IMG/VR virus record: IMGVR_UViG_3300025121_000027
Location: 1-64,000 of that record
Length of the DNA stretch: 64,000 nucleotides
DNA from: a virus
Reading direction: 5' to 3' (one strand)
The position numbers and the translations under genes are program-made. The notes under the pieces are model-generated. The model worked only from the letters and a program-made list of their open reading frames with translations, ran no database searches and was not told where the DNA came from. Positions 6,989 to 61,864 of the stretch are shown here, in pieces (position 1 is the first letter of the stretch; each line of letters begins with the position of its first letter).

Positions 6989-9067
6989 TTATCCTGCACT
7001 CAATTGATACAATGGAAACACAATATCTCCCCATCCGTTAGCATAAGTAACAGTTTTCAAGGCTTCATAAACATCTGTCAATCTTATCATCGGGTCTTCA
7101 TCCCCTCTTTTCTTTTTCTTTTGATCCGATGAAAGAGCTATCTTTGTAATGTATCCTATGACTGCTCGGCGAACGTTCTCTGCATCTTCTCCCTTTTGTT
7201 TTATCTTGTATATAATATCTTTGATTCGCGCCCAGGATTCGCCGTTCGCTAATGACTGGCATAAATCCTTTATCTCTGCTTCAAGCGGCGTAAAACTGTT
7301 AATAGCTGTTATGATCGCTTCATCTTCAAGATCGATTACTTGGTCCAGTATTTTCAAAGCATCTCTCGGACAGCCATCGGCAGTATCTATAATTGCTTGA
7401 ATAGCTTTATCTGGAAATGAGCCAACATCTTCTTTCTTTAGAGTTCTGAGAAGAAGGGTTTTCATTTCTGTATCATTCAAAGGGTTGACTTTAAATGTAT
7501 GGCATCGGCTATGAATGGTTCCGATAAGTCTTTGCGGGTCTGTAGTACAAAGAATAAAATAAACCCAAGGCGGTGGCTCTTCCAAAGTTGTCAAGAAATT
7601 ATTCTGTGGAATGTTCTTCTCGGACGCACCGCCAGAGCCTATCATATGGCAATTATGAACAGGTAAACCGTTAGCGAAATAAGACGGATGATTTTTAACT
7701 TGCAAATCATAACAAATTACATATCCTTGATCTTTTTCTTTATCTCCGATAATACTTTGGAAACATTCGTCATTATTTCCTCGTTTGTAAATCTCAGAAT
7801 TTGCCAGCCTAATTCCTTTAGTTTTGCTGTTTTCTTTATATCTCTCAATATAATTTTTTTCGCACCGTGACTCTTTCCATCTACTTCTATTGCAAGCTTC
7901 AGTTTCTTGTTGCCAATATCTACTTTGTAGCAAGTTGGATAGCCAGGAAATCTTCCACCAAGCGGAATAGCAACTTCCATAGGCCAATTCAATGCTTTTG
8001 ACAATAAGACTTGTGGCTTTGTGAACTCCCCATTCCCTCCACGAGGAACAGGGCACAGGTGCAATGTTCCATTTGTCTCTTTTGTAGATTTCATTTTTTC
8101 TACATACTCTAAATTGAACATGGGATTTTTCTTTTTCATTCGCTTGGAATGTTTCTCTCCTATATAATCTCTCATTTCTTGAGACATATTTTTCCAAGCT
8201 TTTGCTACGCTCTTGCTGCGTTTTTTTCTGGCTTGTTCTGTATTGCATGTCGCTCTGTATTCTGGATGCTGCCGCAAATTCTCGTTGGCACATTTCCTCC
8301 CACAAAATCGATTCCCCAATTTTTTGACAGGCTTGCCGCATATCAAACATAAAGACCGAGATTTTGTCATTGATAAATTGTGACATTCTTTGGAGCAATA
8401 TTTCTGCCATTTCCGAATTACTTTGTTGCACGTCGCGCAATATTTGATTTCTCTCATTTGTTATTCCTATAAATTCAGAATCAAGCGGATAAATTATATC
8501 ATCAGAAGTAAGGTTTTGCGCTTCTACCCATCCCTTTGAAGTAAAAAATAAATGATCTTTAGTTGTATAAATATTTCTATCTTCTGAAAAAGTTAATTTA
8601 ATAAGTCTATCAAAAGATATTTTATTTTGCGATACAGCGACAACTTTATCTTTGCCATATAAAGAAACAATATCTTGATCAACTTTAATTTGTTCAATTG
8701 GGATATTGCCGCTTGGCGTTTCGATCATAGTTCCAGCAGGAAAACATTCTTCGATAAGCCAAACCCTACACTTTGCAACAGATGGTTTATAAGAGATACT
8801 TCTTTTCAATTCCTTAATGGTATCTGCTTTAACATCTCCACCATCAATCTGATAGAAGTCTGGACATTCATCGATAGGCATACCAAGAAGCTTCTCTGCA
8901 ACGATTCTTCCTGTTGTGCTCTTGCCGCTTCCTTTTGGACCCATAAACAACCAAGCGTGTGGCAAGTCTTTTTCTCTGGAAAAGATTGTCTTAATACTAT
9001 TGACCATATCTACATTACCAACAATTTCATCTAATGTCTTTGGTCTGTATGTAGTTTGAAGCGGCAT
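6989..9067 (-). CDS. dnaX: DNA polymerase III gamma/tau-like clamp loader, intein-containing
   Basis: YRPKTLDEIVG, Walker A GPKGSGKST, Walker B WLIEE|CH, LEEPP, SRC and GCPRDA motifs. Confidence 0.92.
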   Translation of the reverse strand: MPLQTTYRPKTLDEIVGNVDMVNSIKTIFSREKDLPHAWLFMGPKGSGKSTTGRIVAEKLLGMPIDECPDFYQIDGGDVKADTIKELKRSISYKPSVAKCRVWLIEECFPAGTMIETPSGNIPIEQIKVDQDIVSLYGKDKVVAVSQNKISFDRLIKLTFSEDRNIYTTKDHLFFTSKGWVEAQNLTSDDIIYPLDSEFIGITNERNQILRDVQQSNSEMAEILLQRMSQFINDKISVFMFDMRQACQKIGESILWEEMCQREFAAASRIQSDMQYRTSQKKTQQERSKSLEKYVSRNERLYRRETFQANEKEKSHVQFRVCRKNEIYKRDKWNIAPVPCSSWREWGVHKATSLIVKSIELAYGSCYSAWWKISWLSNLLQSRYWQQETEACNRSRWKESRCEKNYIERYKENSKTKGIRLANSEIYKRGNNDECFQSIIGDKEKDQGYVICYDLQVKNHPSYFANGLPVHNCHMIGSGGASEKNIPQNNFLTTLEEPPPWVYFILCTTDPQRLIGTIHSRCHTFKVNPLNDTEMKTLLLRTLKKEDVGSFPDKAIQAIIDTADGCPRDALKILDQVIDLEDEAIITAINSFTPLEAEIKDLCQSLANGESWARIKDIIYKIKQKGEDAENVRRAVIGYITKIALSSDQKKKKRGDEDPMIRLTDVYEALKTVTYANGWGDIVFPLYQLSAG
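7652..8746 (-). mobile_element. 365-aa intein in DnaX
   Basis: Starts CFPAGTMI, block B TKDHLF, ends YDLQV...YFANGLPVHN followed by Cys+1. Confidence 0.93.
7717..8457 (-). CDS. Zinc-finger + Vsr/DUF559-like (EDxHD-type) homing endonuclease nested in an alternate frame of the DnaX intein
   Basis: Two CxxC..FCS/YCS..C modules; YKVDIG..LAIEVDGKSH..D..LKELGWQILRF. Offset 610 nt from the dnaX start (different frame); AGGA upstream of the ATG. Confidence 0.85.
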   Translation of the reverse strand: MREIKYCATCNKVIRKWQKYCSKECHNLSMTKSRSLCLICGKPVKKLGNRFCGRKCANENLRQHPEYRATCNTEQARKKRSKSVAKAWKNMSQEMRDYIGEKHSKRMKKKNPMFNLEYVEKMKSTKETNGTLHLCPVPRGGNGEFTKPQVLLSKALNWPMEVAIPLGGRFPGYPTCYKVDIGNKKLKLAIEVDGKSHGAKKIILRDIKKTAKLKELGWQILRFTNEEIMTNVSKVLSEIKKKIKDM

Positions 9068-9152: not shown

Positions 9153-10466
9153 TTATCCTCTGAAAAAGTTTGCCATTCTATAATTACTATTTCTTTGTTT
9201 TCTAATTTTATGAATAGTAGTTTTTTGTTCTTCTGGTAGTGTCTTTTTAACTTCTTTCATTTGCATTCTTCTTGTTCTAACAATCTCTTTATACTTTTGA
9301 TAAGCATCGCTTTTTGGCTGTGCCTGTCCAAGACCTTTACACCAATAATCATTTCTTAATAATACTTTACACATTCTACGCCATGATGGAGCCCAGCATT
9401 TACTTTCAAGTTCTGGCGGTGCTTCTTCTGGAATAATCGGATAACCCCTTCTGTGCCACCCGTGAATAAACTTTTTAAATCTAAGCGTGTAATGACTTCT
9501 CGTTTTCTTCGGCATTGTTTGCAGAAGCAAATTACAAAAGCTTTTCCATGTATGGTTATCAGGTTTTGTTATTTTATTATAACCACTAATGTTGCCATTT
9601 TCTTGAACATAAAGCGCTCCAGAATTTGCTCCATTTACTCTTGCAACTAATTTAAACCATGTATTCGGTTCTAAAATATGATAAAGCCACAATCCTCTTC
9701 TCTGATCGTCTCCAAATGGTTGACACAATCTTTGATGCGATAAAGGGACACCCGCCATTTGCATCTTATCATATATTTTATTGTGAGGTTTTTCTGGATA
9801 TTTAGCGTGATACTTCCAAATGTCTTGAGTAAGCCAATCGTAAATAGGATATACGTTATAAACATTATCTGCTATTTTTGTTGTCCATCTATAGTTGTTG
9901 AACATTAAATCTCTTTTTTCCCAAGTAGCAATAGCACAATATCTATGGAGACTTTCTTGTGCTCTGATTCCAATAAAAGCAGCAGTAGGTTTGTCTTGGC
10001 TATACCACTCTCCAAACAAAACAATAAACTCTTCAAACTCCATCTTAGCAACGCCAAACGGATAGTCTTTTTCTGTTTTTATATATGGATAATTTGGCTT
10101 TTCTCTTATCCAAATATCTTTCTTTTCTTCATCCCAACAAACCCATCTCGGCTCATAATTTGTAACAGCATTTCTTAAAAGCATTGGAATACAAATCCAA
10201 TGCGGATCAATATACTCTTTGTAAATCTTGAACATTTCTTTTGCGTGTTTTATAGTCTCTGCATATTGTGCTTCAAAGTCTATATACATGACTCCAACTT
10301 TTCGCTTCCTACGCATTGCTTCTTCCATAACAAGATGAAACATAACACTACTGTCTTTACCGCCAGAAAAAGCAACATAGATTCTCTCAAAATTATCAAA
10401 TACTATTTTAACTCTTTCTCTTGAAGCCGTTAATACATTGTAGTTTTTATATCTTTTTACACCCAT
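9153..10466 (-). CDS. PAPS-reductase-like / DUF3440 protein (IbrA/YbdN family)
   Basis: PP-loop AFSGGKDS, GIRAQESLHR, YPIYDW and WAPSWRRMCK..LRNDYWC. Confidence 0.88.
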   Translation of the reverse strand: MGVKRYKNYNVLTASRERVKIVFDNFERIYVAFSGGKDSSVMFHLVMEEAMRRKRKVGVMYIDFEAQYAETIKHAKEMFKIYKEYIDPHWICIPMLLRNAVTNYEPRWVCWDEEKKDIWIREKPNYPYIKTEKDYPFGVAKMEFEEFIVLFGEWYSQDKPTAAFIGIRAQESLHRYCAIATWEKRDLMFNNYRWTTKIADNVYNVYPIYDWLTQDIWKYHAKYPEKPHNKIYDKMQMAGVPLSHQRLCQPFGDDQRRGLWLYHILEPNTWFKLVARVNGANSGALYVQENGNISGYNKITKPDNHTWKSFCNLLLQTMPKKTRSHYTLRFKKFIHGWHRRGYPIIPEEAPPELESKCWAPSWRRMCKVLLRNDYWCKGLGQAQPKSDAYQKYKEIVRTRRMQMKEVKKTLPEEQKTTIHKIRKQRNSNYRMANFFRG

Positions 10467-10478
10467 AATAAACCGCCA

Positions 10479-11627
10479 TTAATAAATGTCAGATTGTCTA
10501 TTTGCATAAGCTTCGTCCATGGTAACTTCTTCACGGTCATTAGCTTTAAGCCATTTATTCAAATATTTTAGAGCAACTTCGTTTGCTTCGTTCTGTTGTT
10601 TCTCAGACATTAGAGAAAATCCACCTCTAAATGTAGACGGAATACCTGTAGCATAACACATGGCAGCTTGTCCAAGCCATGCTATTCTGTTCATGGCGCT
10701 ATTTGTTAGGTAGTGTTCGCAAGAATGTTTCCACTCCTTTATAACATGTTCAAGTGTAGCAGCAAATTTCTTTGGGTTAGATAAAAACTTTTTATACTCT
10801 TCTTCGCACTCGCTTTTAGTTTTTCCATGCATTGTAGTATTATAAAAACCAGCCTTATAACATTCCCATTTTTCATATGTGTGGAAAATCCTATTTTCAT
10901 CACTCGTGTTTACTGTTCTAAATTCTTTATCTTCTTCTTTAAAATCGTCTACATCATCGCTCAACTCTTCAAAATCAGATTCGGTTACTTCTCCTTCAAC
11001 ATCCCATGCTTTTGAAAATTCTTGATCTGAAAATAATTCGATAAGCCCTGTTATTTGACACAAGCGCAAAATTTCATCTTCATCCATTCCAAGTTCTCTT
11101 GAAATTTTTTCATTGTCCCAATTTCTTCTTTTTAATTCTAAGACAATATCAGACATCTTTTCTATCTGATGTTTGCCCCTTGCGCGATTATGTCTAATAG
11201 TTGCCGCTATTCTATCTGATTTTGATTCTCTTTCATGATTTATAATAGCAAGAGGAAGATAACCTAAAATTCTTTTCTTCGCTTCTTTTGATTCTTTGCC
11301 GACTCTATTTCTATGAAAGCCGTCTACTACTTCGAATATATCTTGTTCATTTCTCCATGCGACAATTGGTTGCGTATAGCCGTCTTCACATATTGATCTT
11401 TCAAGCAGTTTCATTTCTGGAGGAGCTACAGAATTTGGATTATAATCATTTGCATGAACCATGTCTGATTTAATCCACTGCACACAATCAACAGGCTCAT
11501 TTTTAAATGGACTATACTTGTGAAGTTCTTTTCTTATTTCATTAATTGCTTCGATTAAATCTCTTTGGTTTAAAATATCAAGAGATTTAAATAAGTCTTT
11601 CGATTTCTTAATAACTTCTTTTTTCAT
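10479..11627 (-). CDS. ParB/Srx-like protein (IbrB/YbdM family) with extra C-terminal domain
   Basis: NDYNPNSVAPPEM, DGYTQPIV, VDGFHR and TIRHNRARGKH, plus about 130 extra C-terminal residues. Confidence 0.88.
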   Translation of the reverse strand: MKKEVIKKSKDLFKSLDILNQRDLIEAINEIRKELHKYSPFKNEPVDCVQWIKSDMVHANDYNPNSVAPPEMKLLERSICEDGYTQPIVAWRNEQDIFEVVDGFHRNRVGKESKEAKKRILGYLPLAIINHERESKSDRIAATIRHNRARGKHQIEKMSDIVLELKRRNWDNEKISRELGMDEDEILRLCQITGLIELFSDQEFSKAWDVEGEVTESDFEELSDDVDDFKEEDKEFRTVNTSDENRIFHTYEKWECYKAGFYNTTMHGKTKSECEEEYKKFLSNPKKFAATLEHVIKEWKHSCEHYLTNSAMNRIAWLGQAAMCYATGIPSTFRGGFSLMSEKQQNEANEVALKYLNKWLKANDREEVTMDEAYANRQSDIY

Positions 11628-43196: not shown

Positions 43197-43997
43197 ATGC
43201 GAAAAAGAAGAGACATTCCAATTATAAAACCTGCCGATGCTCCTAAGGGAAGAGGTAGGCCAAGCAAGAAGCCCAAAGTAAAGAAGAGTTATCTATATAA
43301 ACCACCAGAAGCACGAGACTTATCCGATTTACAGATGCGATTCTGTGAAGAGTACATAGTAGATTTAAATGGTGTACAAGCGGCAATACGATCCGGCTAT
43401 AGTCCATCAAGCGCAGGCATAACAGCAAGCAAACTTTTAGCAAATACTTCTATCATTAGATATGTACAACATCTTAAGATAGAACGCGCCAAAAAATTAG
43501 AAGTCTCCCAGGATAGAATAGTACAAGAGTTAGCAAGAATAGCTTACAGCGACCATAGAACATTTTATGATAAAGAAGGTTGGCCGATACCGATAGAGCT
43601 ATTGACAGACGATCAGCAAGCATCGGTAAGGGACATTCAGTGGGGAGAAGAAGTCCAGAAAGATAGAACTGGCGAAACAATAAAAGATCAAAATAACCAA
43701 GATAAGATTTTTAGATATGTAAAGAAGTATGCTTTTTATAATAGAGTAGATGCGCTGAGAATGCTCGGGCACCATTTGGGAATGTCTCTTGATAAACCAT
43801 CGGAAAGATTTACTGGAAAAGATAAACCGCAGCAAGAGATAACATTCGAACATTTACTTAGAAGATTGGATGCAGCGAAGTTGGAACAATTAACACAATG
43901 GTTAGTATCTGCCGCGCAGCCAATTAAAAGTGCTCATCCTGTAGATAAAGAAGATATTCCAGAATGGCCGGATGAAACCCTTGGCGGTATGCAATGA
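43197..43997 (+). CDS. terS: Terminase small subunit
   Basis: LSDLQMRFCEEYIVDLNGVQAAIRSGYS, VQELARIAYSD and AL..LGHHLGM motifs. Confidence 0.9.
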   Translation: MRKRRDIPIIKPADAPKGRGRPSKKPKVKKSYLYKPPEARDLSDLQMRFCEEYIVDLNGVQAAIRSGYSPSSAGITASKLLANTSIIRYVQHLKIERAKKLEVSQDRIVQELARIAYSDHRTFYDKEGWPIPIELLTDDQQASVRDIQWGEEVQKDRTGETIKDQNNQDKIFRYVKKYAFYNRVDALRMLGHHLGMSLDKPSERFTGKDKPQQEITFEHLLRRLDAAKLEQLTQWLVSAAQPIKSAHPVDKEDIPEWPDETLGGMQ

Positions 43998-44361
43998 CAA
44001 AATGCCCAAGATGCAATGGTGAAGTTTTTAAGGTAATCTATTATGGATTGCCTTTTTCTTTATGCAAAGAAGAAGATTGCAGTTGTTTGTTTGGTTTCTT
44101 TGATTTCATTGCAAGATATCTTCCTTTTAATGGATGGTTTTATGCATATGAAGGAAGTTATCTGATTGCTTTAATATGTTGGTTGTTTGGGATGGAAACT
44201 GGAAAAGACGAATGAAAAAGAAATTCTTTATTGCATTTATCTTTATGCTATTTGTTTTTATAAGTATTGGCTTGAAGTGTTTTATCTTTTCCAATAGTTC
44301 TACTGGAATGATTGCGGATGATAGTAGTCATGTAATAGACAGTAGAGAGTATGGAAAGTAA
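43994..44361 (+). CDS. Two small hypothetical ORFs, one membrane-anchored
   Basis: Tiled between terS and terL. Confidence 0.5.
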
Positions 44362-44364
44362 TTA

Positions 44365-45270
44365 ATGTTTAATGCTTTTGACATATCCAGCTATACACCA
44401 AGACAGCTAATGGATTCAATTCCACCGAATCCTATTCCGATAGCCGAAAGAATACTGGCAGAAAAATCATTAAAGCATTTTGTAATGCAAGCCTGGCATA
44501 TACTTGAGCCGAGAAGCCCTTTGATTTGGAATTGGCATCTTGATGCAATCTGCCAACACTTAGAAGCAGTAACAAACACCTATCTTATTAAATCAGGAAT
44601 AGCTGGAAGAGAAATAGACAACCATTTCTATGAAGCAAATTATTCCATTCCTTCTATAAACTACTTATGGATAAATATGCCGCCGAGACATGGTAAGAGT
44701 TTGCTTGTTTCTGTCTTCTGGCCATGTTGGGAGTGGGGTCCGAAAAACCTTCCAGACTTACGATATCTTTTCATCTCATATGCACAGCCACTATCTACCA
44801 GAGACAATTTAAAACGAAGAAGATTGATAGAGTCCAATTGGTATAGAGAAAGATGGGGAGAGCGTTTTCATCTTACTACAGATCAGAATGCAAAAACTCG
44901 CTTCGATAATGACAGAACAGGAGTAATGATTGCAACTTCTATCTCTGGTCTTGGAACGGGCGAAGGCGGGCAACGCGTTTGTCTACCATATAACCAGAAG
45001 ATAGATACAGAAATTGGTAGGGTCGAGATCGGAAAGATCGTCAAAGAAAAATTAGAAATCAAAGTTGTTAGTTTTAATCATAAGACAAATAAAACAGAAC
45101 TTTCTAAAATAGAAAAGTATTTTGAAAATGAAGGCCGAGATATTTTTGAGATAGAACTTGAAGACGGCACGACATTTCGATGTACTGAAGATCATCCTGT
45201 ATATGTTAATGGTAAAGGGTATATTCAAGCAAGAGAATTAACAGAAGAAGATGAGGTGGTCTGCTTATAA
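44365..45270 (+). CDS. terL: Terminase large subunit N-half fused to split intein IntN (44980-45267)
   Basis: WNWHL, Walker A INMPPRHGKS, TGEGGQRV|CLPYNQ...CTEDHPV...ELTEEDEVVCL then stop. Confidence 0.92.
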   Translation: MFNAFDISSYTPRQLMDSIPPNPIPIAERILAEKSLKHFVMQAWHILEPRSPLIWNWHLDAICQHLEAVTNTYLIKSGIAGREIDNHFYEANYSIPSINYLWINMPPRHGKSLLVSVFWPCWEWGPKNLPDLRYLFISYAQPLSTRDNLKRRRLIESNWYRERWGERFHLTTDQNAKTRFDNDRTGVMIATSISGLGTGEGGQRVCLPYNQKIDTEIGRVEIGKIVKEKLEIKVVSFNHKTNKTELSKIEKYFENEGRDIFEIELEDGTTFRCTEDHPVYVNGKGYIQARELTEEDEVVCL

Positions 45271-46280
45271 TGGGTTGTTTATATCAAATAACTTCTCCAT
45301 CTGGTAAGTCTTATATAGGCATTACTAATTTTACCGCTCAAGAAAGATGGTCTCAGCATGTAGGCGAAGCATTAGGGTCAAGGTCTAAAAGAGCAATTTC
45401 TAATGCTATAAGAAAATATAGCTCTGATTTGTTTGATGTTAAAACACTTCTTATTGCAAATGATGCGGCTTATTTAAAGTTGATGGAAGTTAAAGTAATT
45501 GCGGCATTTAAAACGCATACACCTAATGGTTATAATATGACTGCTGGCGGAGATGGTGTTGTTGATTTAGATAGCGAGACTTTTAAAAATCTTCTTGAAA
45601 AACGCTTAAAAACTATAAGGTCGAAAGTATATAGAAAGAAAAATTCAGAAACTCAAAAGGCGCTTTGGACAGAAGAAAAAAGACAAGAAAGATCAAGAGT
45701 TGTTTCTGAATTGTGGGAAGATGAAAATTATCGCAATCATATGTCTGAAGTTCACAAAGGATGGCATTATTCTAAAAGAGAAAGAGAAAAAGCGTCTATA
45801 CGTTCTAAAAAACGCTGGAGTAATCCGGAGTATGTCAAAAGACATAAACTTATGATGAAGAAACTTTGGCAAGATGATGAATTTAAAAAGAAAATGGCTG
45901 AAGCCACAACCGATGAAGTAAAAAAGAAGATAGGTGTTGCTTCAAGAAAGATGTGGTCTGATCCAGAGTTTCATGCAAAAAGAAGTAAGCAAATGAAAGA
46001 GTATTTTAATTTGCCAGAAGTTAAAGAAAAAATAGCTGAAAAAACAAGACAACAAATGGCTGATCCAGAAGCAAGAAAAAAGATTGGTGAAGCCATGTGT
46101 AAGCATCGAGGTTATATCTTTTCAAAAGGTATTAAACCAAAAAATCCGAGAAGCGTGTTTTATAAAATTTGGGACAAGATAGAAAGTAAGATAACATTCG
46201 CAGAGCTTTATCGTTTTGATATTGAAAGCCGTAGAATATCAGAAGCTGTTGATCGTGGCTATTTGGTGATTGTTAAATAA
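45270..46280 (+). CDS. Free-standing GIY-YIG homing endonuclease with NUMOD3-like repeats
   Basis: LYQITSPSGKSYIGIT, RW..H, E...I and GYNMTAGGDG; repeated basic W-containing helices. Confidence 0.88.
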   Translation: MGCLYQITSPSGKSYIGITNFTAQERWSQHVGEALGSRSKRAISNAIRKYSSDLFDVKTLLIANDAAYLKLMEVKVIAAFKTHTPNGYNMTAGGDGVVDLDSETFKNLLEKRLKTIRSKVYRKKNSETQKALWTEEKRQERSRVVSELWEDENYRNHMSEVHKGWHYSKREREKASIRSKKRWSNPEYVKRHKLMMKKLWQDDEFKKKMAEATTDEVKKKIGVASRKMWSDPEFHAKRSKQMKEYFNLPEVKEKIAEKTRQQMADPEARKKIGEAMCKHRGYIFSKGIKPKNPRSVFYKIWDKIESKITFAELYRFDIESRRISEAVDRGYLVIVK

Positions 46281-47389
46281 TGAAGATTAAGAAGATAAAA
46301 AGTATTAGACGAATCAGAAAAGACTCTGCTACTTATAATATTCAAGTAGCAGATAACTATAATTATTTTGCCAATGGTGTACTTGTTCATAATTGTATTG
46401 ATGACGCCCATAACGTGCTTGAAGTAGAATCAGAGCCAAAAAGACAAAAAGTATTAGCTGTCTGGGACGATACTCTTTCAACTCGTGTCAATGATGTAGA
46501 AGTCGGTGCTTATGTCGGCGTCATGCAAAGAACACATTCAAAAGATTTAACTGGTCATATTTTAGAAAAGAGAAAAGATGGGCAGATAGACAATCTTGTG
46601 CATGTATGTCTTCCTGCAAGATACGAAAAGAATCATCCGCACCCTTCTGATACTCCATTAAACTTTACAGACCCAAGAACAGTAGAAGGCGAGCCTTTAG
46701 ATAAAGGAAGACATCCAGAAGATAGTCTAAAGCAATTAGAGGGAAAACTTACTGCCTGGGGTAAGGCTGGTCAGTTACAGCAAAGACCAAGGCCAAAAGG
46801 TGGTCAGATTGTTCAAGCAGGAAAAATTAAGATAGTAGATAACTATAATCATAGATTAGTAAAGAAGATGGTGCGTTACTGGGACAAAGCTGCCTCTGAG
46901 GATAAAAGTGCTTCTCACTCAGTAGGTCTTCTGATGGCATCTATGAGAGATGAATGTATTGACTACGGCTTTATTGTTCTGGATGTTGTCTACGGCCAAT
47001 GGACTTCTGGCGAGCGTGATGTAAGAATGCGTCAAACTGCTCAGATGGATGGAATAGAAGTTGAACATGTAGTAGAGCAAGAAGGTGGCTCCGGCGGTAA
47101 AGAATCAGCACAAAACTCCATAAGAAAAGTATTTCTTGGTTATAAGTGTTCAGCAGATCACCCATCAGGCGCAAAAGATGTAAGACTTGAGCCGTTCGCT
47201 GGCCAAGTAGAAAACAACAATATTGCTATGTTATCTGCTCCTTGGAATAAAAAATATGTGGAAGCATTAGAAGAGTGCTCTGTTGGTTCCGTAACAGACT
47301 TTGGGGATGGTTCTTCTGGTGCTTTTAACTGGCTTAATGGTTTAACTGGTAAGGGAAAGTCTAAAGTAAGAATAGGAGTTGTAGGATAA
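46280..47389 (+). CDS. terL: Split intein IntC (46280-46393) fused to terminase large subunit C-half
   Basis: MKIKKIKSIR...YNIQVADNYNYFANGVLVHN|CIDDAHN; then VMQRTH..DL.G, QLQQRP, RYWDKA and EQEGGSGGK nuclease domain. Confidence 0.92.
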   Translation: MKIKKIKSIRRIRKDSATYNIQVADNYNYFANGVLVHNCIDDAHNVLEVESEPKRQKVLAVWDDTLSTRVNDVEVGAYVGVMQRTHSKDLTGHILEKRKDGQIDNLVHVCLPARYEKNHPHPSDTPLNFTDPRTVEGEPLDKGRHPEDSLKQLEGKLTAWGKAGQLQQRPRPKGGQIVQAGKIKIVDNYNHRLVKKMVRYWDKAASEDKSASHSVGLLMASMRDECIDYGFIVLDVVYGQWTSGERDVRMRQTAQMDGIEVEHVVEQEGGSGGKESAQNSIRKVFLGYKCSADHPSGAKDVRLEPFAGQVENNNIAMLSAPWNKKYVEALEECSVGSVTDFGDGSSGAFNWLNGLTGKGKSKVRIGVVG

Positions 47390-48402
47390 ATGAGTACTTT
47401 TGATGTGGACTTGAGAACAATCAATCCGCAAACAGGAGACATAATAGTTCTACAATTAGACGTGGATAACATTCCTTATTTTGATTTAGACGATTTTATG
47501 GAAATGCAAGATAAGTTGAAAGAAGCATTTCCAAGGAACAAAATAATACTATTGGCTAAAAGCGATAATTTTTTGGTCTGTAAGAATAAGAAAGAAGTTC
47601 AAGAGATATTAAACGAGTTGTCATAAACATTGGATAGTTTGGATAGACAAGTGAATGGGTGCTACAGAACGCAAAGAGAAATAGAAGAAGGCATTTGCAC
47701 TTGTCTACAATACGAGCAAGCAACAGGAAGATGTTTATCAAAGATAGATACAGTATCAAAAATAGATGGTCAGTCAACTTGCCCAAGAAACCCGTTGGCG
47801 ATACCTTATAAAGAGTGGGAAAAAAGAAAATGAATCTTTTCTTTAATCCATTAAAAGCTTTCAGAAGATGCAAAGAACTTGAATGCAGGATTGCAAGAAA
47901 AGAAGAAATGTCCAGACTTTGCGAAGAGAAAGCAAAACTTCTTAAAAACGGAATAAGATGCGATCAAGAGCAGCTTGATAAATTAAGAATTAAAATAGCC
48001 AAGAAAACTAAAAGGAAATAAGCAATGGCATTTACTCCAACATATCTTCCTAATAGCAGAAGCAAGTTTTTTCAGTTCTTTGCTACTGGTAACACAACGA
48101 TGGTTGAAGCATTAAATCTTGGTAAAGCATTTGAACTTGCCGATATTAGATTGATTCTTTCTGCTGCTCATCCTTCTGTAACTTATTTCACCGCTAATTT
48201 ATCTGCTGGTCAAGGTAGTGCTTATAACGTCGTGCTTGCTTCTTTTCTTGCAAGTACTCTAACCAATGTAACAGATAGAGTATGGACACCTTCTGCTGAT
48301 AAAATATTATATCAACATAATGATACTATTCAATTTTCCATGCTTAACAGCGTTGGTGCGATTTGGGGGTTAGTTGTAACTGGTTGGGCAGTACAGGATT
48401 AA
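47390..48402 (+). CDS. Four small hypothetical ORFs
   Basis: Tiled ORFs 47390-47626, 47630-47833, about 47830-48021 and 48025-48402. Confidence 0.5.
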
Positions 48403-59362: not shown

Positions 59363-61864
59363 TTGACAATCTTCTCTAAAATATTTGGATCGAAAAACAA
59401 AAAAGAAAGTCGAATAGCTCGCTTGCTATTTTCTTCTGGTGGCGGTGCTATTTATAGTGAAAAGAACTATGAAAATTTCAGCAGAGAAACATATCTAAAA
59501 AATGTGATTGGTTTTAGATGTATTCTTGAAATTGCTCAAGCTTGTTCTTTTGTGGATTGGTATCTTGAAAAAAGAATATCTCAAGATCAAACAGAAATAG
59601 TAACAGATCATGAAGTAAATAATTTGCTACATAGACCAAATAGAGATAACTCTTGGTCTATGTTAATGTATAGATCGGCGGCATTTCTTGCTTTATCTGG
59701 TAATACTTTTTTTGAGAAAGTACGATTACAAACAAGAAATGCAAAGTTTCCTTCTGAAATGTATGTACTTAGACCAGATAGAATTACTTTGGTTCCAGGC
59801 GATAATGGAAGATTAAAACAATACGAATATACTACAAATCAAGGCAAAGAATATTTTGATATAGACCCTATAACTAATGAATGTGATTTACTTCATGTTC
59901 ATACTTTTCATCCAACAAATGATTTTTGGGGCGCTGGTCCGGTTGAGCCAGCAAGTAGAGAAATAGATATCTCCAACGAAACAACTGATTGGAACATGTC
60001 TTTGATTCGCAATCAGGGGCGACCAGGGATGGTTTTTACTATTGTTGGAGATATGGGAGATGATGATTTTGCAGCTTTTGAAAGAACTTTAAATGAAAAA
60101 TTTACTGGCCCATCTAATGCCGGAAAGAATATAGTAATTACAGGAGACAATGGAACAAAAGCAGAACCTTATTCTTTTACTCCACAAGAGATGGAGTTTG
60201 TAGAAGGAAGCAGAGAATCGGCAAGAAGAATTGCTTTATCTTTTGGTGTTCCGCCTATGCTTCTTGGTGTTCCTGGGGATAACACGTATTGTTTGCCTGC
60301 TGATGCAACAATATCTACTCCTAAAGGGCCAAAAGAGATTGTAAATCTTTCAAAAGGCGATTTTGTTTATTCTCTTGTAGATGGACAAATGAAGGCTATG
60401 TCTGTTTCTTGGCAAGGCAAGGTCGGCAGGAAACAACTTTATAAAGTAAAAACTAAGAATAGAGAAGTTGTTGCTACTTCTAATCATCCTTTTCTTGTTC
60501 GAGAATCATTTAAAATTGAATCTCCTAATATTGGAAAAAGGCGCAGTAAAGAAATTGAATATCGTCTTGTCTATAAGGAACTTAAAGACATTAAAGTTGG
60601 CGATGTATTAGTTCAAGCCAGTAGCCTGCCAACTTTTGAGGAAAGCAATCCTTATAATATCTCTATAGAAGAGATGGAACTTTTAGGACTTTATCTCGGA
60701 GATGGGTATTGTTCTAAGCCGGTAATGATTGGAGACGGCAAAGGATATAAAAGAGGCGGTAGTTTTATTATAGCGGCAAGTCCAAATGCTTCTTATAGAA
60801 ATTATTATTTAAACATAGTGCAAAAACTTACTGGATCAGAAGGCCACATCGGGAAAAATTGTGTTGCTTTTGGAAGTTCTTCATATGTCAGGCGCATAGA
60901 TTATCTTGGCTTTAGCGGTACTGCTCATCAAAAAAGAATACCGGAGTGGGTATTCTCGATGCCAGAAGAATATAAGCTTGCTTTACTTAGAGGTTTGATT
61001 GATTCTGATGGCAGTATTGATAAGAATGGCAGAGCTTCTTTTGCACTTTGTAATAAAAACCTTATCAAAGACATATGGAGCCTTTGTTTATCTTGTAGTT
61101 TGCAAGTCGGAAGTGTTTGTACAAGAGAAAGAGAAGCAACACTTCCGAATGGCAAAAAATTTAATCAAATATATCATATTTTTATGATTTCATGCGCTTC
61201 TGATGTTGCTAAAATAGGAACGCATACGACAGTTTATAAAGAAAGAATACAGGCTAATGTTTTTAAAGATAAAAAGCAACTTCTTTCTGCTACTGGAGGC
61301 AATTCGAGTTTTGAAAAAATTACTTCTCTTTTAAATACAAATGAGTTTCATTTTGCTAAAGTAGTTGATATAGAAAAGCAAGATGTTCAAGATGTTTATG
61401 ACATTGAAGTAAATGGTAGCCACAATTTTATAGCCGAAGGCATTGTTGTTCATAACTCAAACCTCAAGGAAGCGCGTCAAGCATTTTATGAAGGAACAGT
61501 TCAATTCTATTTAAATATGCTTTGTTCCGAATTAAACAATTGGTTGTTTAAGCCAGAGGATAAATTAGCTATCCGATATGATATGGATAATGTTCCCGCT
61601 CTTGAACCAAGATGGGAAAGTAAATGGAAAAGAGCAGAGAACGCGGACTTCCTTACTATCAACGAAAAAAGAGAATTGACTGGTTATGAGAAGTATGAAG
61701 GTGGAGATGTAATTCTTGTTCCGATGGGGATGCAAACTCTTCAAATGGCAACTGAAGAAAAAGAAGAAGAAATAGAAAATATTGAAGATGATGCAAAAAA
61801 AGTATCTGTAACTGATGAAGAGTTTGAACTTCTAATGGGTTTAAGAGAGAAATGGAATGAGTAA
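59363..61864 (+). CDS. HK97-family portal protein, intein-containing
   Basis: LLHRPN, LSGN.F, LRPDRI, WN..LI.NQGRPG and IALSFGVPPMLLG..NTY|...|SNLKEARQAFYE. Confidence 0.92.
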   Translation: MTIFSKIFGSKNKKESRIARLLFSSGGGAIYSEKNYENFSRETYLKNVIGFRCILEIAQACSFVDWYLEKRISQDQTEIVTDHEVNNLLHRPNRDNSWSMLMYRSAAFLALSGNTFFEKVRLQTRNAKFPSEMYVLRPDRITLVPGDNGRLKQYEYTTNQGKEYFDIDPITNECDLLHVHTFHPTNDFWGAGPVEPASREIDISNETTDWNMSLIRNQGRPGMVFTIVGDMGDDDFAAFERTLNEKFTGPSNAGKNIVITGDNGTKAEPYSFTPQEMEFVEGSRESARRIALSFGVPPMLLGVPGDNTYCLPADATISTPKGPKEIVNLSKGDFVYSLVDGQMKAMSVSWQGKVGRKQLYKVKTKNREVVATSNHPFLVRESFKIESPNIGKRRSKEIEYRLVYKELKDIKVGDVLVQASSLPTFEESNPYNISIEEMELLGLYLGDGYCSKPVMIGDGKGYKRGGSFIIAASPNASYRNYYLNIVQKLTGSEGHIGKNCVAFGSSSYVRRIDYLGFSGTAHQKRIPEWVFSMPEEYKLALLRGLIDSDGSIDKNGRASFALCNKNLIKDIWSLCLSCSLQVGSVCTREREATLPNGKKFNQIYHIFMISCASDVAKIGTHTTVYKERIQANVFKDKKQLLSATGGNSSFEKITSLLNTNEFHFAKVVDIEKQDVQDVYDIEVNGSHNFIAEGIVVHNSNLKEARQAFYEGTVQFYLNMLCSELNNWLFKPEDKLAIRYDMDNVPALEPRWESKWKRAENADFLTINEKRELTGYEKYEGGDVILVPMGMQTLQMATEEKEEEIENIEDDAKKVSVTDEEFELLMGLREKWNE
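60290..61456 (+). mobile_element. 389-aa LAGLIDADG (DOD) intein in the portal
   Basis: CLPADATI, TSNHPF, LLGLYLGDG, LLRGLIDSDG and VYDIEV..HNFIAEGIVVHN|S. Confidence 0.93.

Follow-up and report, generated by a model that had tools for sequence, protein, structure and literature searches.

Fractured genes, in which the two parts of a host gene are fused to the halves of a split intein, were defined in 2009 by Dassa, London, Stoddard, Schueler-Furman and Pietrokovski (Dassa et al., 2009; PMC2677866). In these loci, a free-standing GIY-YIG or Vsr-like endonuclease gene lies between the halves on the same strand, the N-terminal intein half (IntN) has 88 to 105 amino acids (aa) and the C-terminal half (IntC) 33 to 54 aa, the charges of the halves are opposite, and the 3′ end of the endonuclease gene overlaps the start of IntC, by 6 to 69 bp in 15 loci. 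Examples are gp41-1, gp41-8, NrdJ-1, IMPDH-1 and NrdA-2, and the hosts include a gp17-like phage terminase that is atypically split, with a 122-aa IntC (PMC2677866). Terminases are a common intein host, and 22 inteins of the Terminase_6 family were listed by Novikova et al. (2016; PMC4760082). Here, we describe an apparent fractured gene for the large terminase subunit (TerL) in positions 1 to 64,000 of the IMG/VR virus record IMGVR_UViG_3300025121_000027; this whole stretch of 64,000 nucleotides is referred to as the window. The locus consists of three open reading frames (ORFs), which encode the N-terminal part of TerL with IntN (ORF1), a GIY-YIG endonuclease (ORF2) and IntC with the C-terminal part of TerL (ORF3).

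Like the loci of Dassa et al., the window locus has its host gene in two ORFs, each carrying an intein half, and a free-standing endonuclease gene; the halves, with 96 and 38 aa, are in the canonical size ranges and oppositely charged, and the end of the endonuclease gene overlaps the start of IntC. Unlike in those loci, the broken host gene is for a TerL from a different family, with the break at Walker B, the overlap is only 1 nt, and the endonuclease gene is preceded by neither an intergenic region nor a hairpin; moreover, the locus lies within a complete 107-kb genome and not on short read assemblies. An earlier note on this DNA had placed fractured genes mainly in replication and nucleotide-metabolism hosts. 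It recognized a known layout but understated the background, in which a GIY-YIG gene between the halves and one terminase are already on record (PMC2677866). The fractured-gene layout is known and common, and the pair in the window is a further case. AceL-TerL and GOS-TerL are atypically split terminase inteins. The window locus resembles this group in that a large terminase of a phage contains a naturally split intein and a mobile nuclease gene lies nearby, but inteins of the group are split after block A, with an IntN that is very short and more than 100 aa in IntC. Because the 96/38 split is canonical and the TerL lineage is unrelated, the window intein does not belong to that group. Our literature search turned up no paper on a TerL intein with a canonical split at Walker B. 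Among cultured phages, a blastn search with the locus was without a match, and tblastn with ORF3 yielded no match above 33% identity and none that covered IntC; no cultured phage with a member of the family was found.

We conclude, with a probability of about 0.88, that this phage has a fractured terL, in which a GIY-YIG gene splits a mini-intein in the Walker B strand and the two TerL parts would be rejoined by trans-splicing. The three ORFs follow one another on the plus strand in three different frames (1, 0, 2), and each is free of internal stops and frameshifts (Table 1). Both junctions, ORF1/ORF2 and ORF2/ORF3, read TAATG, with the final A of the TAA stop serving as the A of the next ATG. 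IntN is closed by TAA, and IntC has its own ATG with a single in-frame codon upstream of it. Thus, the three-ORF layout with TAATG-coupled junctions that the earlier note had described was confirmed by coordinates, frames and junction sequence.

The two outer ORFs contain adjoining parts of one TerL, because the matched profile positions abut without any part missing or doubled in all three profiles. Residues 30 to 202 of ORF1 match positions 267 to 403 of phrog_38 (terminase large subunit; E value, 2e-20), and the match resumes in ORF3, where residues 41 to 362 correspond to positions 409 to 713 (E = 3e-24). The match to phrog_4758 stops at position 161 in ORF1 and is picked up at 163 in ORF3, and a TerL profile (A4) covers positions 5 to 192 in ORF1 (44401-44985; E = 5e-96) and 191 to 505 in ORF3 (46394-47347; E = 1e-150). 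The N-extein is 68 to 73% identical to uninterrupted homologues, and the C-extein is 63 to 68% identical to the uninterrupted TerL proteins P0001 to P0006 (530 to 539 aa) found in a homologue search with ORF3. At the insertion site, these proteins read GEGGSRVI-IDDAHN with no gap or duplication. The joined exteins of the window (205 + 331 = 536 aa) read GEGGQRV-CIDDAHN, with Cys in place of Ile. In the alignment, the insertion is exact and in frame relative to the intein-less homologues. Both the GKS and the hhhhDD motif are present, and the gene for the small terminase subunit (terS) lies in the same operon region. The pieces are those of a large terminase, i.e., an additional strand catalytic E (ASCE) ATPase with Walker A and B and a C-terminal RNase H-like nuclease.

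Since neither P0002 nor profile A4 had a sequence match in the PDB, the uninterrupted P0002 was modeled with AF2 and its fold was searched. The model (predicted local distance difference test [pLDDT], 88.6) had large terminases throughout as top fold matches, namely those of PhiV-1, T4 (gp17), D6E, Sf6 and HK97. In the model, residues 200 to 204 (RVIID) make up a β-strand that ends in the invariant D204 D205, 97 residues past the Walker A Lys107, which comes after strand 96-100 and begins helix 107-120. The model thus places the intein inside the Walker B strand, two residues ahead of the aspartates, with Walker B assigned from model topology and established knowledge of ASCE ATPases and not from a residue-level superposition. 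Together with the alignment of uninterrupted homologues, this bears out the junction in the Walker B region that the earlier note had deduced.

The two segments at the break have the features of intein halves. IntN comprises residues 206 to 301 of ORF1, starts with Cys1 (residue 206; TGT, 44980-44982), contains 21 acidic and 14 basic residues (net charge, -7) and has a tail that includes EEDE. IntC comprises residues 1 to 38 of ORF3, with 2 acidic and 8 basic residues (net charge, +6). The acidic 96-aa IntN with Cys1 and a stop and the basic 38-aa IntC ending in HN|C were therefore as the earlier note had described them. IntN matches profile positions 9 to 93 of the Pfam family Intein_splicing (PF14890; E = 7e-7), and IntC matches positions 121 to 155 (E = 3e-5), i.e., the complementary part of the model. 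Among solved structures, IntN matched the naturally split NrdJ-1 best (8ubs; E = 9e-11) and DnaE split inteins next (E = 2e-7), and IntC matched the C termini of mini- and split inteins (E = 5e-4 to 0.01). In an alignment of the window intein with 11 relatives (8 split and 4 contiguous inteins altogether), Cys1 of the window aligns with Cys1 of all 11 relatives. Block B in IntN is C-T-E-D-H-P, whose Thr and His are kept in 11 of the 12 inteins, one having Ser. Block G is VLVHN|C (ORF3 residues 34 to 39), with HN|C invariant in 12 of 12. These comparisons give good support to the assignment of the two segments to a class-1 intein that is naturally split, and every feature by which such an intein is recognized at the sequence level is present. 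From this, we infer that the halves would splice in trans and that DNA packaging would depend on it.

ORF2 is a GIY-YIG homing endonuclease by its conserved residues and modeled fold, and its homing activity is predicted. It matched the profiles phrog_314 (E = 1e-20) and phrog_5123 (E = 2e-10), both termed "homing endonuclease with GIY-YIG motif", and an exhaustive search gave 18,141 relatives at E ≤ 0.001, the nearest one beyond its own cluster being 36% identical over the full length. Y15, G17, R26, H30, E73 and N89 are invariant in 23 aligned relatives, and Y5 is at least nearly so. The family profile aligned with the catalytic domain of I-TevI (1mk0) at E = 8.5e-4, with the catalytic residues in register. 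The AF2 model of ORF2 (pLDDT, 93.6) superimposed in Foldseek on the I-TevI structures 1mk0 and 1ln0 with TM scores of 0.80 to 0.81 and root mean square deviations of 2.0 to 2.1 Å over 94 to 97 columns. The GIY-YIG gene that the earlier note had seen between the intein halves was thus recovered by profiles, residues and fold. Like I-TevI, ORF2 has the catalytic fold with the Tyr, Tyr-x-Gly, Arg, His, Glu and Asn set and is modular, with a catalytic domain (residues ~1 to 97) followed by an extended putative DNA-binding part, which would comprise helical repeats (102 to 276) and a small C-terminal domain (283 to 334). Unlike I-TevI, it is not intron encoded and has the helical repeats instead of a zinc-finger linker. 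A second gene of the same family lies outside the window at G000:C1:71337-71807 (+) (locus L082); it is 32% identical to ORF2 over residues 10 to 170, has an open frame of 253 aa and probably is another free-standing homing endonuclease.

Some points weigh against trans-splicing in a fractured terL. Each of the PF14890 matches alone stays under the gathering score of 35.8 bits (29.6 bits for IntN and 24.3 bits for IntC), although such scores are expected for half domains. In block F, Asn is present where many class-1 inteins have Asp; this Asn is common to the contiguous relatives, which have to splice in cis. ORF2 itself had no match to PF01541 at E ≤ 0.1, whereas 9 of the 23 aligned relatives did (best E = 1e-7).

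If the halves did not splice, the TerL pieces could form a noncovalent two-subunit terminase in which the intein halves serve only as a dimerization clamp. Working fractured genes that lack inteins, nrdA of Aeh1 and gp43, are indeed cited by Dassa et al. (PMC2677866), and the opposite charges of IntN and IntC would promote tight association without any splicing. However, the splicing residues are all kept across 8 split loci at 35 to 60% identity, which argues for selection on catalysis. Moreover, the break cuts the Walker B strand midway, two residues ahead of the catalytic aspartates, and an unspliced complex would keep a 134-aa hedgehog/intein (HINT) domain within the ATPase core. We therefore regard a nonsplicing clamp as very unlikely.

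The opposite charges of the halves are not an adaptation to splitting. The earlier note had taken charge complementarity as typical of efficient split inteins, and the pattern is present here as well as in the other split loci (net charge of IntN, -7 to -20; net charge of IntC, 0 to +7), but it is found equally in contiguous inteins at the same site, P0029 (-10/+6) and P0007 (-10/+4). Because these contiguous inteins show it too, the acidic-IntN/basic-IntC pattern is older than the split.

A decaying pseudogene of a defective phage, with the intein halves as relics, or a misassembly would also give a broken terL. The record is metagenome derived with no isolate, and related loci (L108/L118, L098 and L059) have endonucleases that are remnants or lost. 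However, the genome (107,005 bp) has direct terminal repeats and a CheckV completeness of 100% and is estimated to be complete, and the TerL profile finds only the two pieces and no second terL in it. Proteins identical to those of ORF1, ORF2 and ORF3 are recorded from 5 to 7 contigs of several sources, one-residue variants of the same length are present on 96.6-kb and 106.9-kb contigs, and a 2.4-kb fragment of a different IMG/VR record (L090), which is from the window's own phage, has the same IntN, endonuclease and IntC. Because independent assemblies contain these three ORFs as well, the arrangement is not an artifact; it is real and the sole terL of the genome. All three ORFs are open, and the catalytic residues of the intein, the endonuclease and TerL are intact, so that decay or misassembly is highly improbable.

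Least probable of all is a continuous precursor, made either by recoding (two -1 shifts at TAATG), with a cis-splicing intein and a nested GIY-YIG domain, or by removal of the endonuclease as RNA: the shift of frame is of equal size at each junction, but a slippery heptamer is absent at both, the junctions of relatives vary (ATGA overlaps, 25- and 40-nt overlaps and a 35-nt gap) and thus fit stop-restart (termination-reinitiation) coupling over a conserved shift site, and the RNA-intron version, which the earlier note had named as speaking against its own proposal, was rejected because a scan of 44000-47800 matched no Rfam family at E ≤ 1, group I and II introns included, and ORF2 occupies the entire gap, with no noncoding space for a ribozyme core.

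In a fractured, trans-splicing terL, the mini-intein would have been broken by the free-standing GIY-YIG gene at the loop where nested endonuclease domains usually sit. The three genes are probably cotranscribed with terS, and their translation is probably coupled via the 1-nt TAATG overlaps, so that TerL-N-IntN (301 aa) and IntC-TerL-C (369 aa) would be produced as two proteins. The acidic IntN and the basic IntC would then assemble into the HINT fold and catalyze class-1 trans-splicing, i.e., an N-S shift at Cys1, transfer to Cys+1, cyclization of the terminal Asn and an S-N shift, to yield a 536-aa TerL with an intact Walker B region. The endonuclease presumably cleaves endonuclease-less terL alleles of coinfecting relatives, and its gene would be copied in along with the flanking intein DNA.

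The coordinates of the locus are given in Table 1. The GC content is 33% in IntN, 34% in the endonuclease gene and 27% in IntC, compared to 40 to 41% in the exteins and 37% in the window; the AT-richness of the intein and endonuclease DNA (44980-46393) relative to the exteins is consistent with a foreign mobile origin. No terminator-like sites were found on the plus strand within the three genes, promoter-like sites were at the level of shuffled sequence (22 versus 19.0 expected; standard deviation, 4.7), and repeats within the locus were unremarkable.

Table 1. Coordinates of the split terL locus and the upstream terS in the window
Feature	Position	Strand	Description	Evidence
terS	43197-43997	+	Terminase small subunit, start of packaging operon	PF03592 Terminase_2, E = 4e-25; phrog_51, E = 6e-30
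ORF1	44365-45270	+	TerL-N + IntN, 301 aa
TerL N-extein	44365-44979	+	205 aa; Walker A PPRHGKS; ends GEGGQRV	phrog_38, TerL profile A4
IntN	44980-45270	+	96 aa + TAA; Cys1 = TGT at 44980	PF14890, NrdJ-1 (8ubs) match
ORF2	45270-46280	+	Free-standing GIY-YIG homing endonuclease gene, 336 aa	phrog_314, phrog_5123, I-TevI fold
ORF3	46280-47389	+	IntC + Cys+1 + TerL-C, 369 aa
IntC	46280-46393	+	38 aa; blocks F and G; ends His-Asn	PF14890, profile positions 121-155
TerL C-extein	46394-47389	+	331 aa + stop; Cys+1 (TGT, 46394-46396), then IDDAHN; C-terminal nuclease domain	phrog_38, TerL profile A4

The same TerL site is occupied in other phages. A scan of IMG/VR for the motif HN-C-(x)-DD[PA]HN retrieved 29 true loci that carry an intein there, 11 of which are split (nine distinct) and 15 contiguous. 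Four further proteins (P0007, P0008, P0029 and P0045) have contiguous mini-inteins of 134 to 141 aa at the same point. The window locus and the contiguous TerL inteins have one intein family (IntN identity, 39 to 91%) and one insertion point in common, at which HN|C precedes (x)DD[PA]HN. The contiguous ones are single polypeptides with mini-inteins of 134 to 141 aa or large inteins of 310 to 397 aa; the window intein is cut by a separate gene. A start with Met and an IntC of about 38 aa was found among the ORF3 homologues in P0027, P0028, P0030, P0031, P0033, P0034, P0037, P0038, P0049, P0085 and P0100 (351 to 366 aa) and in P0112 (391 aa). A metagenome scan with IntN gave nothing closer than 45% identity and thus did not retrieve an allele of the P0029 type as DNA.

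The split loci differ in what lies between the halves. A GIY-YIG gene of the same family is present in L112, L093/L096 and L107 (profile E = 1e-85 to 6e-51), a 136-aa remnant of such a gene in L108/L118 and an HNH gene (PF01844) in L105/L114; the HNH gene of L105 (11719-12387, -; 27 bits) overlaps the start of IntC by 40 nt. In L095, which has a different intein, an I-HmuI NUMOD-like gene (9816-10640, -) lies between the halves. No gene at all is found in L098 (2383-4343), where the halves overlap by ATGA, and L059 (3800-5825) is also split, with nothing in the 35-nt gap. The end of the N half of L098 (...gaATGA) is homologous to the ends in L118 and L096, whose ATG starts the endonuclease gene, which fits an intein that was already split when it lost the endonuclease. 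In L098 and L059, the split intein may have survived the loss of its endonuclease, or the two loci may be mini-inteins with single-base frameshift errors.

The window and P0029, its closest relative with a contiguous mini-intein at Walker B, are 91% identical in IntN, 72% in the N-extein, 65% in IntC and 58% in the C-extein. These identities point to a recent exchange of the N part of the intein or to recombination near the endonuclease. In an extein tree, the split loci with a GIY-YIG gene were scattered among mini-intein alleles, with four state changes for four rows, and sister pairs were the window and P0029 (support, 97), L112 and P0045 (99), and L107 and the endonuclease-less split L059 (100); the intein tree again paired the window with P0029 (99). 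Both trees are indicative only, being built by a quick method from 27 rows and short alignments. A second intein is present downstream, past the conserved TerL motif WDKA, in P0029 (a 3.5-kb ENA contig) and P0036.

Taken together, these alleles could mean, although this is less likely than not, that the Walker B site keeps the whole life cycle of a composite mobile element, with the window and P0029 as a before/after pair. The states found at the site are empty, mini-intein, large intein and split, and the split inteins have either a nuclease gene (GIY-YIG or HNH), a nuclease remnant or no nuclease in the break; the split state would outlast the loss of the nuclease, as in L098 and L059, and would arise or spread repeatedly among close TerL relatives.

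Two more inteins are encoded in the window. The DnaX/clamp-loader gene (6989-9067, -) has an unbroken intein (PF14890; E = 1e-12) that contains a 245-aa ORF for a DUF559/Vsr-like endonuclease (7717-8457, -; PF04480, E = 5e-13), overlapping in another frame; such out-of-frame nested endonucleases are discussed in bioRxiv 10.1101/2025.01.02.630785. The portal protein gene (59363-61864, +; PF04860, E = 7e-57) has a classical intein (PF14890; E = 5e-18) with an in-frame LAGLIDADG domain (PF14528; E = 1e-5). The 107-kb phage thus combines three inteins that each have a different endonuclease type and architecture: one endonuclease is nested in frame, one is nested out of frame, and one is free-standing and accompanies a split intein.

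The finding leaves the understanding of this kind of element unchanged. If the halves do splice, genome packaging of this phage would need a protein ligation step, and the 96/38-aa pair, whose nearest characterized relative is NrdJ-1 with only remote similarity, would be a canonically split, Cys-dependent addition to the intein toolbox. Its main use is comparative: P0029 and the series of alleles at the same site can be used to study how an intein is broken by a free-standing endonuclease and whether the split form lasts once the endonuclease is lost. If the life cycle suggested by these alleles is true, the window/P0029 pair could be used to test what makes a cis-splicing intein efficient in trans.

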